A DNA stretch of 60,409 nt, taken from IMG/VR virus record IMGVR_UViG_3300045988_116135. The stretch is one strand, 5' to 3'. This DNA is from a virus. Position numbers and translations under genes: made by a program. Under the pieces are notes generated by a model, which was given only the letters and a program-made list of their open reading frames with translations, was not told where the DNA came from and ran no database searches. Shown here piece after piece: positions 9,827 to 54,128 of this stretch; positions within the stretch are counted from its first letter, which is position 1, and each line of letters opens with the position of its first letter.

Positions 9827-9911
9827 TGGTGGGAGGTGACGGAGTCGAACCGCCCTTAATCGTATTGATTGGGTGCGCACCTCTAATCACTTACCGATGT
9901 GATAACCTCCC
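9827..9911 (-). tRNA. tRNA-like gene with encoded CCA but an aberrant anticodon arm (possible pseudo-tRNA or non-decoding tRNA mimic)
   Basis: GGGAGGT TA TCAC ATCGGTAA GTGA T TAGAG GTGCGCA CCCAA .. AATC AATAC GATT .. GGCGG TTCGACT CCGTC ACCTCCC A CCA. The acceptor, D and T arms are canonical; the anticodon stem pairs at only 3/5 positions. Confidence 0.5.
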
Positions 9912-9916
9912 GAGCT

Positions 9917-9942
9917 CCCCGCAATCCTCACGGACGGCGGGG
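9917..9942 (-). ncRNA. Conserved-loop hairpin, copy 1 (CCCCGC-CG-TCC-GTGA-GGA-TT-GCGGGG)
   Basis: Lies 6 nt upstream of the tRNA-like gene. Same inner module as 14111..14139, with a different but complementary outer stem. Confidence 0.45.
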
Positions 9943-9992
9943 ATAATCATTAACTAACCCAAATCAAATACTATGGAAAACTCACTCTAATA

Positions 9993-14079: not shown

Positions 14080-14110
14080 ATGTTGTTGATTTAAATTTCT
14101 TGATGTGAAA

Positions 14111-14139
14111 AGGCCTCATATCCTCACGGACGGAGACCT
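14111..14139 (-). ncRNA. Conserved-loop hairpin, copy 2 (AGGTCTC-CG-TCC-GTGA-GGA-TAT-GAGGCCT)
   Basis: Same inner CG-TCC-GTGA-GGA-T(A)T module as copy 1, with a fully different complementary outer stem. Followed by TTT. Confidence 0.45.
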
Positions 14140-14193
14140 GCGTTGCACTTTAGTGAAATAATTGATTGAATAGCATCCGCTAGGGATGAAGCG

Positions 14194-14267
14194 TGCTCCC
14201 TGCCGGGCTTGAACCGGCGACCCTAACATTATGAGTGTTGCGCTCTAACCAACTGAGCTAAGGGAGC
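14194..14267 (-). tRNA. tRNA-Met(CAU): tRNA-Met (anticodon CAU; could be Ile2 if lysidinylated)
   Basis: GCTCCCT TA GCTC AGTTGGTTA GAGC G CAACA CTCATAA TGTTA GGGTC GCCGG TTCAAGC CCGGC AGGGAGC A. No encoded CCA. Confidence 0.9.
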
Positions 14268-14310
14268 GTTTGCCGGGGAATCCCACCCCGGCACAGTTTA
14301 AGTAAAAACT

Positions 14311-14341
14311 AATATTCCTTCCTGCCTCACGGCGGTATATT
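14311..14341 (-). ncRNA. Related hairpin (AATAT..GCC-GTGA-GGC..ATATT) in the tRNA spacer
   Basis: The apical 3-bp stem covaries (GCC/GGC versus TCC/GGA) around the same GTGA tetraloop. Confidence 0.3.
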
Positions 14342-14389
14342 AAGGTCTTGGTTGTGAAGTGTATAATAATTAGCAATGTGATTTAAGCG

Positions 14390-14518
14390 TGGTAGCCGGG
14401 GAACTCGAACCCCCTGTAACCCTGAATAATAATATAACTGGATAACCGGATTCTCACCGGACGCAAGCCTTTGTCTTACGGATATTGATATAATATGAAT
14501 TTATTATGGTTCGCTACC
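14390..14518 (-). ncRNA. tRNA-like 3' module (T arm plus GGCTACC-A) with a distant candidate 5' acceptor strand
   Basis: GGGGG-TTCGAGT-TCCCC-GGCTACC-A. The only candidate 5' strand, GGTAGCG, lies 120 nt upstream. Internal hairpin CCGG-TGAGAAT-CCGG. Confidence 0.3.
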
Positions 14519-16378: not shown

Positions 16379-16454
16379 CAAACATACTGAAAATATTTCA
16401 GTATATATTATTGTTTTGCTGAAATATTTTCAGCATAAACATTATTTAACTTTG
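16379..16454. promoter_or_regulatory. Divergent promoter/operator region of the lysis-lysogeny switch
   Basis: O1 is CTGAAA-ATA-TTTCAG (16387-16401). O2 is its exact reverse complement, CTGAAA-TAT-TTTCAG (16419-16433). A leftward -7 box TATGTTTG lies at 16386-16379 (minus) and a rightward -7 box TAACTTTG at 16447-16454. Confidence 0.55.
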
Positions 16455-17359: not shown

Positions 17360-17387
17360 ACGCCCGTGTCAGAAAAAACACGGGCGT
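17360..17387 (-). terminator. Terminator between convergent genes
   Basis: ACGCCCGTGT-8 nt-ACACGGGCGT, with a T-run on the minus-strand side (TTTTATTG). Confidence 0.65.
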
Positions 17388-36962: not shown

Positions 36963-37003
36963 TAAAAAGCCGTCCGGCCCTTATTGGCTAGACGGCTTTT
37001 TCC

Positions 37004-53651: not shown

Positions 53652-54035
53652 ATGGATTGGACGATGATGTTAACCGCCGTATTAACCTTTGTTGGAGGAG
53701 GTGGTCTTGGAGCAGTGCTGATGTTTCCGCAAAAGAGGAAATCGGCCGAGTTGGAGAATGAGACGAAAGCGAGTGAGCAATGGAAGGAATTGTATATCAA
53801 AAGTCAGGAGGAAAAGAAAGGTTTGAGCAATCTTATAGATAAACTATACGACGATCAGGGACATTTTCGTGACGAGAATAACCGTCTTACAACCCAGATA
53901 GCGGTATACAAAGTACTTAAATGCAGAGATTTGAAATGTACCAATAGGAATCCTCCTATCGAGAACAATATAAATAGTGAGGATAAGGAGGATAAAGATT
54001 GCGATAAAGAAGGCTCCCCAGATCCAAAAGGATAG
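53652..54035 (+). CDS. Holin-like single-TM protein
   Basis: N-terminal TM MMLTAVLTFVGGGGLGAVLMF, upstream of the muralytic gene. Confidence 0.35.
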   Translation: MDWTMMLTAVLTFVGGGGLGAVLMFPQKRKSAELENETKASEQWKELYIKSQEEKKGLSNLIDKLYDDQGHFRDENNRLTTQIAVYKVLKCRDLKCTNRNPPIENNINSEDKEDKDCDKEGSPDPKG

Positions 54036-54128
54036 GGGAGCCGGATAAATTTTAGCTTCCTGTCTTTCGCAAGGGAGGATAGCAAGGTTAACAAAGCGTC
54101 ACAAATATACGAATAAAATCAAATAACA

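Follow-up and report, generated by a model that had tools for sequence, protein, structure and literature searches.

Two hairpins encoded on the minus strand of a Bacteroides phage are members of a large family of RNA stem-loops that occurs in Bacteroidales bacteria and in their phages, including crAssphage, and that has apparently gone without a name so far. The window (the whole stretch of DNA analysed, 60,409 nucleotides of IMG/VR record IMGVR_UViG_3300045988_116135) belongs to a phage related to the B. fragilis phage BF1-TP2, with 94% identity over parts of the region; the neighbouring genes in BF1-TP2 include Erf, NinB, RusA and a DUF4494 protein. We regard it as fairly probable that the hairpins of this family sit at RNA 3' ends, which they would define and stabilise, either via termination or via cleavage by RNase P.

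Structure and covariation of the capped hairpin

Copy 1 lies at 9942-9917 (CCCCGC-CG-TCC-GTGA-GGA-TT-GCGGGG) and copy 2 at 14139-14111 (AGGTCTC-CG-TCC-GTGA-GGA-TAT-GAGGCCT), both on the minus strand, and re-reading of that strand returned exactly the positions and letters reported for them in a first-pass annotation. The 14-mer CCGTCCGTGAGGAT is common to both, and the 13-mer core CGTCCGTGAGGAT is present at two places in the window, where shuffled sequences would give 0.01. As RNA, copy 1 reads CCCCGC-CGUCCGUGAGGAU-U-GCGGGG and copy 2 reads AGGUCUC-CGUCCGUGAGGAU-AU-GAGGCCU. The lower stem of copy 1 (9917..9942), CCCCGC/GCGGGG, can be extended to UCCCCGC/GCGGGGA (9916-9943) and is followed by a C opposite U, an upper stem GUCC/GGAU and a GUGA loop; copy 2 (14111..14139) has the lower stem AGGUCUC/GAGGCCU with one U.G pair, a C opposite AU, and the same upper stem and loop. 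The upper stem opens with a G.U pair in both. The minus-strand folds have energies of -21.0 kcal/mol (z -4.4) for copy 1 and -14.8 kcal/mol (z -2.8) for copy 2, and the plus-strand folds -19.1 and -8.7 kcal/mol, respectively. Because the energies are lower there, the minus strand is favoured for folding, for copy 2 by a clear margin. Among close relatives, the lower-stem U.G of copy 2 is replaced by U-A (GAGGCCT to GAGACCT), which keeps the pairing only on the minus strand. Both the folds drawn in the first-pass annotation and its preference for the minus strand are borne out by these energies and by this replacement. Copy 2 is conserved in 10 related contigs, and orthologues of copy 1 with the same hairpin are present in BF1-TP2 and many IMG/VR contigs.

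At least 236 distinct members with unrelated lower stems were gathered, mostly from Bacteroidales phages. In these, a lower stem of 6-11 bp that is free to vary is followed by a single variable nucleotide on the 5' side and by an upper stem of 4 bp that opens with a G.U wobble; the loop is of GNRA type, mostly GUGA, and on the 3' side a conserved A (or AU) precedes G. The family formula is lower stem, Y, N, G-U/C-Y-Y, GNRA, R-R-A/G-U, A, G, lower stem'. Copy 2 carries all the hallmarks (the 4-bp stem opened by G.U, GNRA, the 3' A and the G) as GUCC-GUGA-GGAU-AU-G. Copy 1, GUCC-GUGA-GGAU-U-G, has U where the family has A and still passes as a member by these hallmarks, and its orthologues in BF1-TP2 and IMG/VR show AU or AC at the position of this single U.

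An exact scan of IMG/VR with the 14-mer gave at least 120 matches. Among the matches listed, 30 of the 53 distinct viral contexts have five or more contiguous flanking pairs (0.9 expected by simulation), and the flanking stems of these 30 are unrelated in sequence; the remaining matches, mostly high-GC and lacking flanking complementarity, are read as chance matches in coding sequence. When the core followed by a T run was sought in one genome per species, 74 bacterial loci with 65 different lower stems were found (about 8 expected). A covariance model built from the 14-mer and genome matches (R1) retrieved from the same loci variants with the compensatory upper stems GUCU/AGAU and GUUC/GAAU, as well as a GCGA loop. 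A further model, R2, was built from 59 sequences, none of them from the window. Both models contain 1-nt bulge variants only, since MAFFT misplaced the gap when 1-nt and 2-nt bulges were mixed. Copy 1 scores 41.3 bits with R1 and copy 2 scores 27.9; the R2 scores are 23.9 bits (E 6e-4) and 22.6 bits (E 1e-3), E-values from such short-calibrated models being rough. The R2 search of the window returned nothing convincing beyond the two copies, the next match having 15.1 bits. As loci were fetched by exact patterns and taken among the matches listed, conservation of the core is partly by construction and all counts are lower bounds.

In the alignment of 59 sequences, 98% of the lower-stem cells are paired, a figure that drops to about 43% if the partner columns are shifted. 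In the upper stem, the three inner pairs vary in a compensatory manner (UA50/CG9, CG36/UA20 and UA32/CG27), and the first pair is G.U in 58 of the 59 members. Because this alignment had been selected for pairing, an alignment-free test was added, in which exact 14-mers were scanned and the share lying between complementary flanks was counted. Its chance level is about 1-3 contexts in each set, as simulated for the sets of 88 and 41 contexts, and the G-C set of 46 contexts was scored with the same hairpin test. Among the matches listed, the compensated double change to GUCU/AGAU (GTCTGTGAAGATAG) forms part of a hairpin in 69 of 88 contexts, the single change that leaves C.A at the loop-closing pair (GTCCGTGAAGATAG) in 7 of 41, and the change from wobble to G-C (GTCTGTGAAGACAG) in 6 of 46. 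Pairing of the upper stem is therefore under selection, and the G.U wobble is preferred over the more stable G-C pair. Replacement of the 3' A by G (GTCTGTGAAGATGG), which mostly faces U and can pair, leaves a hairpin in 27 of 63 contexts among the matches listed. Conservation of the 3' A does not depend on its ability to pair, and the 5' nucleotide opposite is free to vary. The preference for G.U over the stabler G-C, together with the invariant 3' A, suggests that the cap is read by a specific partner and is not kept for stability alone. The claim of a functional motif at the RNA level, with a conserved apex and a covarying stem, is upheld by the 30 paired contexts out of the 53 listed, by the 65 different lower stems in bacterial genomes and by the compensatory changes in the upper stem. 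The check proposed with that claim, covariance models applied to relatives, found the hairpin in related phages and covariation in its upper stem.

A third hairpin of the window, at 14341-14311 on the minus strand (14311..14341), had been proposed as a relative of the two copies. Its 5-bp hairpin, CCGCC/GGCAG, has a GUGA cap and is enclosed by an A/U outer stem, UAAUAU/AUAUUA; GUUUUUAC follows, and a tRNA-like remnant precedes the whole element. In related phages it is conserved as C(C/U)GCC-GUGA-GGCAG within UAAUAU/AUAUUA, the C.A mismatch of CCGCC/GGCAG being U-A there. It was recovered by neither R1 nor R2, and its fold is no better than those of shuffled sequences (z -1.1). We have therefore rejected it as a family member, as both models miss it; it is a terminator-like hairpin, analogous in design and outside the family.

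At gathering thresholds, Rfam 15 reports only two tRNAs in the window, and at E values up to 10 it reports no hairpin family, only sub-threshold matches to FopS, GibS and tRNA-Sec. A literature search for the exact core sequence returned unrelated primer matches only, and searches for papers on terminators and tetraloops of Bacteroides or on small RNAs of crAssphage yielded nothing describing the cap. The GUCCY-hairpin (Weinberg 2010, PMC2864571), likewise a short Bacteroidetes hairpin motif with a similar-sounding name, was rejected as a match, because its conserved GUC and CY flank the hairpin on the outside, whereas our family conserves the apex. What is new here is the cap, for which we found no Rfam family and no describing paper; the occurrence of FopS in a phage has already been published.

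Taxonomic spread, strand bias and tRNA neighbours

The 74 matches in bacterial genomes fall nearly all within Bacteroidales, including Prevotella, Bacteroides, Parabacteroides, Muribaculaceae, Alistipes and others. In the prototype crAssphage (Carjivirus communis), whose genome holds no tRNA genes, R2 located five members: four share the 380-nt non-coding gap that separates gp08 from gp09, and the fifth stands 34 nt past the portal gene. In both arms they lie on the same strand as the local genes. Arrays of 4-7 copies occur, as do local arrays with duplicated flanks (locus L035), and one IMG/VR contig holds seven members in 1.3 kb. The temperate phage BS-TP2 carries the commonest IMG/VR variant between two small early genes, beside a CI-like repressor region. 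About one third of the members in bacterial genomes have a stop codon of the same strand no more than 60 nt away, for example that of an asnB gene; others follow tRNAs, or stand about 45 nt after a TAnnTTTG promoter in a conserved Prevotella sRNA-like unit. Pfam assigned the proteins flanking the bacterial-genome members to asparagine synthase, an RHS-repeat lipoprotein and an F5/8-type-C protein, and a PHROGs search with these flanking proteins gave no match.

The family shows a strand bias. About three quarters of the 236 members collected carry a U run; in the 30 hairpins that had not been selected for it, a T run of at least three follows directly on the 3' side in 21, and an A run precedes on the 5' side in 2. 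Long upstream ORFs are on the same strand in 104 cases and on the opposite strand in 25. Because the G.U pairs, the U runs and the co-oriented ORFs all point to one strand, the element is a directional one that belongs to the RNA level. From their sequence context, the members most likely mark RNA 3' ends on the gene strand. They resemble intrinsic terminators in having a stable stem-loop on the transcribed strand, usually with a U run, after genes, tRNAs and small RNAs, and both window copies fold into such a stem-loop. They differ from intrinsic terminators in keeping an apex of 13-15 nt, with a fixed G.U and 3' A, across hundreds of unrelated stems, and in that a sizeable subset has no U run and abuts a tRNA instead. 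Stable tetraloop caps are common in terminators generally.

In the window, both copies adjoin genes of tRNA type, as the first-pass annotation had it: copy 1 an ARAGORN call at 9911-9827 and copy 2 a tRNA-Met at 14267-14193. Across the family, the association was measured with intron-less ARAGORN calls in 171 loci with 236 distinct hairpins, 1.57 Mb and 170 tRNAs; ARAGORN predictions with long 'introns', being unreliable, were excluded from these figures. Twenty-three hairpins end 2-11 nt (mostly 2-5) before the 5' end of a same-strand tRNA, where 0.75 would be expected, and 20 lie 30-96 nt after a tRNA 3' end, with 3.6 expected. None of the 236 hairpins in the 171 loci adjoins an opposite-strand tRNA. 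The typical order in arrays is tRNA, 30-37 nt, hairpin, 2-5 nt, tRNA, and the window shows both placements, with one hairpin just before a tRNA-like gene and the other after a tRNA. A U run is missing from 20 of the 39 hairpins that abut a tRNA and present in 143 of the 180 that have none nearby. These 180 of the 236 distinct members have no tRNA within range. The link with tRNAs is thus real and partial, and the hairpin is not specific to tRNA spacers. The proposal that it is a signal of the tRNA cluster stands as far as the strand-specific adjacency of 23 and 20 members is concerned, but does not extend to the roughly three quarters of the family that are not near a tRNA.

The putative units ending in copy 1 and copy 2

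Upstream of copy 1, at 9945..9983 on the minus strand, relaxed Rfam thresholds reveal a single-stranded leader, GAGUUUUCCAUAGUAUUUGAUUUGGGUUAGUUAAUGAUU, that resembles the 5' seed (R1/R1') of the small RNAs FopS and GibS. FopS is a 14-copy family in B. thetaiotaomicron that is bound by the protein RbpB and whose seed represses susC-type mRNAs; in that species the FopS/GibS seed pairs with the start regions of these mRNAs, and one phage copy of the family was noted by the same authors (PMC11697453). RbpB binds single-stranded regions of its RNA ligands, and the RRM preprint does not mention a hairpin or terminator motif. The copy 1 leader matches RF04319 (FopS) at model positions 1-40 with 21.4 bits, under the threshold of 56, and a relative (locus L004) reaches 37.3 bits against the same threshold. 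Counted by hand, agreement with the FopS consensus extends to about 31 of 40 positions in the leader and 17 of 21 in the seed, so that the seed differs at 4 of 21, in a match far below threshold. Against RF04182 (GibS) the window scores 29.6 bits (threshold 115), with only the R1 region and hairpin 1 aligning; copy 1 is placed on GibS hairpin 1, GuAc-cuG-CUU-GuGA(u)-AAG-UaA-gUaC, which in the Rfam consensus has the same cap design as our family (GCUU-GUGA(U)-AAGU). The first-pass annotation had missed this small RNA of FopS/GibS type that appears to end in copy 1.

The unit thus shares with FopS and GibS (RF04319, RF04182; PMC11697453, PMC7366714) the design of a seed plus a hairpin, and its leader aligns to the R1/R1' seed. 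It differs from host FopS, whose consensus has a plain stem of 7 bp, a loop of 5 nt and a U tail as its terminator, in having a capped apex of 17 nt, no U tail and a fused tRNA-like gene. The plain terminator, U tail and own sigma-ABfr promoter of FopS are not present as a set in the copy 1 unit, nor are the R1 and R2 seeds and three hairpins of GibS. On sequence similarity, then, copy 1 is the putative 3' hairpin of a FopS/GibS-like phage small RNA that falls below the Rfam thresholds. No TAnnTTTG box precedes its seed, the only one on the minus strand between 9000 and 17500 being at 16386, so the small RNA may be cut out of the early transcript. Both the FopS and GibS scores, far below the Rfam thresholds, and the lack of a canonical Bacteroides promoter before the seed speak against the reading as a small RNA. 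Truly FopS-like leaders make up about 9 of the 232 distinct leaders. UUAG-type words occur near the 232 distinct hairpins at 0.67 per 70 nt upstream versus 0.27 downstream, in a strand-specific manner, and this enrichment would fit a broader class of seed-plus-hairpin units.

The cap is found in another host small RNA as well. The consensus of MasB/BTnc201 (RF04177; PMC10994844), CuCuaC-GuAA-GUCU-GUGA-AGAU-GauA-GuaGaG, holds the commonest phage cap variant, GUCU-GUGA-AGAU, at the apex of the MasB 5' hairpin. The MasB hairpin differs in lying at the 5' end of the sRNA, in having a larger 4x4 internal loop and in not being a terminator. Its structure is reportedly from Prezza et al. 2022. Since GibS and MasB carry the cap in internal or 5' hairpins, the formation of 3' ends is not its only role.

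No U run follows copy 1 (AGCUCGGG); instead there is AGCUC, and 4-5 nt after the hairpin begins a gene of 85 nt that ARAGORN calls tRNA-Arg gcg (9827..9911, minus strand). Its acceptor, D and T arms are good and its anticodon stem is poor; the extra arm is long, CCA is encoded, and the gene falls below the Rfam tRNA threshold with only a weak match to the tRNA clan. The gene is best called tRNA-like, because it lacks both the Rfam gathering score and a canonical anticodon arm. Among relatives, at least four different tRNA-like cassettes, several with insertions in the anticodon loop, stand 3-9 nt behind the same copy 1 hairpin, and the homology between the window and BF1-TP2 breaks right after this hairpin. 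By analogy with known systems, the tRNA-like gene is probably an RNase P handle that would set the 3' end of the upstream RNA. The same logic is at work in the RNase P-made 3' ends of MALAT1-mascRNA, mitochondrial tRNA punctuation and E. coli 3'ETS-leuZ, which have no sequence relationship to copy 1. With a stable 3' structure immediately before a tRNA-like element, tRNA 5' processing would yield a protected 3' end, and transcription would not be stopped. A helix ending 2-5 nt before an RNase P site would normally be expected to hinder binding of the leader by RNase P.

Copy 2 begins 53 nt after the tRNA-Met (CAU) at 14193..14267 on the minus strand, which was called by ARAGORN, scores 66.2 bits in Rfam tRNA and lies upstream of the hairpin. 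ARAGORN also calls a tRNA-Arg(CCU) on this strand, at 16300-16226. A different hairpin, at 14292-14272, ends 4 nt before tRNA-Met. The 53-nt trailer between tRNA-Met and copy 2 (14140..14192, minus strand), delimited from the sequence and its relatives, contains a small hairpin (CAUCC-CUAGC-GGAUG, 14188-14174) with covariation among relatives; next come the conserved UAUUCAAUCA and a single-stranded stretch that varies. The trailer is a candidate body of a small RNA derived from a tRNA trailer. Copy 2 itself has four U (CUUUUCAC): the tail UUUCACAUCA (14101..14110, minus strand) forms with the last stem U a 4-U run, a short tract of terminator type, and the tail in relatives is UUUCUUCC or UUUUCAC. 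Copy 2 fits a terminator-like element, though its 4-U tract is short. A strict terminator scan of the window, which needs five T in eight, called neither copy.

Competing explanations and biological meaning

The tRNA neighbours could be taken to mean that the hairpin is a dedicated tRNA-processing signal, which would guide or time the maturation of the neighbouring tRNA, for example because it would place RNase P or RNase Z/E correctly or would shield the folding of tRNAs within polycistronic precursors, with the terminator-like copies being secondary. The tight, strand-specific spacing (2-5 nt before tRNA 5' ends, with 23 hairpins for 0.75 expected, and 30-55 nt after tRNA 3' ends), the position of both window copies beside tRNA or tRNA-like genes and the separate hairpin at 14292-14272, which also stops 4 nt before tRNA-Met, agree with such a role. 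We nevertheless consider it unlikely, because 180 of 236 members have no tRNA in range and crAssphage combines five members with zero tRNAs; other members follow protein genes (the crAssphage portal gene, asnB) or are contained in the host sRNAs GibS and MasB. It is likewise improbable that the hairpins are ordinary intrinsic terminators whose cap has no function, the common apex reflecting descent by duplication and the stability of the C-GUGA-G tetraloop. Such terminators would account for the U run of most members, for the local arrays with duplicated flanks and for the cGUGAg caps seen on plain Bacteroides sRNA terminators, e.g., BTnc231. They would not account for the conservation of the wobble and the A across more than 200 unrelated lower stems, from siphovirus-like temperate phages and crAss-like phages to bacterial genomes: G.U is kept in 58 of 59 aligned members, the stabler G-C is rare in hairpins (6 of 46 versus 69 of 88 among the matches listed), the 3' A persists whether or not it can pair, and many members have no U run.

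An antitermination site of the nut/boxB kind, at which RNA polymerase would be modified by a phage or host protein bound to the GNRA-type loop of the nascent early transcript, is very improbable in our view. Lambda-type boxB is also a short stem with a GNRA-fold loop on early phage transcripts; GNRA or GNRA-like pentaloop (GUGAU) variants occur in the family, the two window copies lie on the early strand, and the BS-TP2 hairpin is in the early rightward operon beside a CI-like repressor. However, boxB is not a terminator, is without a conserved wobble or A and comes with boxA, whereas most family members are themselves followed by U runs and no conserved boxA-like flank was noticed in the sequences read by eye. 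It is these U runs, the arrays of 4-7 copies and the spread of the family to late genes (crAssphage portal) and host genes (asnB), unlike that of lambda-type boxB, that decide against this explanation. Equally hard to credit is an element acting as DNA, either an ssDNA hairpin or a recombination boundary for swapping tRNA-like cassettes. The break in homology with BF1-TP2 after the hairpin and the four different cassettes behind the same hairpin are in its favour, but a conserved flank beside a variable cassette is expected from ordinary homologous recombination. The asymmetry of the strands counts against it, because the structure relies on G.U pairs, which are C.A on the other strand, and because the hairpins are co-oriented with genes and followed by U runs.

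We therefore return to hairpins at RNA 3' ends. This proposal starts from direct observations, namely the family with its covariation and strand bias, the U runs and tRNAs associated with it, and the similarity of the seed; from these we infer the transcription, termination, RNase P processing and target pairing described here, as well as the reason for conservation of the cap. Copies 1 and 2 would be transcribed from the minus (early) strand as RNA elements. Where a U run follows, as in the majority of the family including copy 2, the hairpin would act in intrinsic termination; copy 2 would end the tRNA-Met unit and may release a small RNA derived from the trailer. Where a tRNA or tRNA-like gene lies 2-9 nt downstream, as in copy 1, RNase P would make the cut; the new 3' end would then lie 2-5 nt beyond the hairpin, and transcription would go on. 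Copy 1 would then be the 3' hairpin of a phage small RNA, the single-stranded 5' part of which resembles the FopS/GibS seed. The four U of copy 2, uncalled by the strict scan, and the missing U run of copy 1 speak against a role at 3' ends.

A further and more tentative possibility, which we put forward with low confidence, is that the G.U-GNRA-A cap is a dedicated recognition handle for an RNA partner of Bacteroidales, and that gut phages including crAssphage exploit it for batteries of small RNAs, some of them mimicking FopS. The partner might be a protein recognising hairpins of sRNAs or of RNA 3' ends, or a docking site for the tetraloop on RNase P or the ribosome.

To our knowledge, Bacteroidales lack the classical sRNA chaperones, their phylum being without Hfq and ProQ, and the making, stabilisation and recognition of their small RNAs are poorly understood. 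A cap that is conserved in both sequence and structure and is common to the validated host sRNAs GibS and MasB, to hundreds of sRNA-like units and terminators of phages and to the most abundant human gut phage provides a concrete handle for seeking the missing RNA partner. The layout of hairpin plus tRNA suggests that phage tRNA clusters and degenerate tRNA-like genes double as processing devices that release protected small RNAs. With a FopS/GibS-like regulator placed in a cultivable lineage of B. fragilis phages (BF1-TP2 and relatives), phage control of host glycan-uptake genes becomes testable. If the cap is indeed such a recognition handle, phage RNAs that mimic FopS could reprogram the SusC-type outer-membrane proteins of the host during infection or lysogeny.

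Capped hairpins and further RNA units in other phages and genomes

In Carjivirus communis, the prototype crAssphage, a single 380-nt non-coding gap between gp08 and gp09 contains four capped hairpins (L436 4288-4596); one leader in this gap (AUAUUUGAUUUGGUGUUAAUGAUG) is similar to the FopS-like seed of the window, and FopS was not called there by Rfam. Seven capped hairpins lie within 1.3 kb on the minus strand of L035 (9590-10875), where the flanks are duplicated and include a GGAC-GAAA-GUCC hairpin, and where one capped hairpin ends 3-4 nt upstream of a tRNA-like gene bearing a 95-nt insertion.

The BS-TP2-like phage family, whose members carry the commonest capped hairpin, also has a DUF2693-FD RNA (RF02926), detected at full score (75.9 bits) on the minus strand of L012 (4650-4698). 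In Prevotella MAGs, a conserved sRNA-like unit (L129, L139, L150, L180 and L194) is composed, in order, of a perfect TAnnTTTG promoter box, a leader of ~45 nt (ACUCGACAACUAGUAAUUUUAAUCUAUAUUUAUCAUUUUCCU), a capped hairpin and a U run.

Other hairpins and palindromes of the window

Two late-strand hairpins of the window, both on the plus strand, were matched weakly by the covariance model of the capped hairpins, which they resemble in build. The one at 36967-36998 (15.1 bits; AAGCCGUC-C-GGCC-CUUAUU-GGCU-A-GACGGCUU, followed by UUUCC) has the C opposite A and the G.U opening pair of the capped hairpins, but its loop is of 6 nt, and the other, at 54012-54042 (11.4 bits), has an AUCC-AAAA-GGAU apex. 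A strong palindrome, terminator-like in both directions (ACGCCCGTGT...ACACGGGCGT; 17360-17387, both strands), is found at the edge of the early region.

Distinct from the capped hairpins is GCCGGGG-UGGGAUU-CCCCGGC (14272-14292, minus strand), which ends 4 nt upstream of tRNA-Met. Relatives such as the L013 locus carry the whole hairpin as its exact reverse complement, with the loop AAUCCCA, and on this sequence comparison the palindromic element is thus inverted between them and the window.

tRNA-like genes beside the hairpins

In BF1-TP2, gp8 (L001 8847-9011), annotated as "hypothetical protein", overlaps the copy-1 hairpin and a 117-nt tRNA-like gene, and this CDS call is probably spurious. 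Within the window, a tRNA-like remnant (14385-14460, minus strand), called by neither ARAGORN nor Rfam, still has a well-formed T arm and the 3' half of the acceptor, likewise well formed (GGGGGUUCGAGUUCCCC...CUACCA). It is followed on its 3' side by a spacer of ~45 nt and then by a GUGA-capped hairpin (14341-14311, minus strand) that is similar in design to the capped family but lies outside it, a layout matching that of tRNA-Met and copy 2 (14139-14111, minus strand). Among four relatives (L090, L054, L118 and L009), three have orthologues of tRNA-Met (window 14193-14267) from which the whole anticodon arm is missing, and in one its place is taken by a tRNA-like gene that carries a large insertion; the role of such "tRNAs" may be to provide a handle for processing and not to decode.
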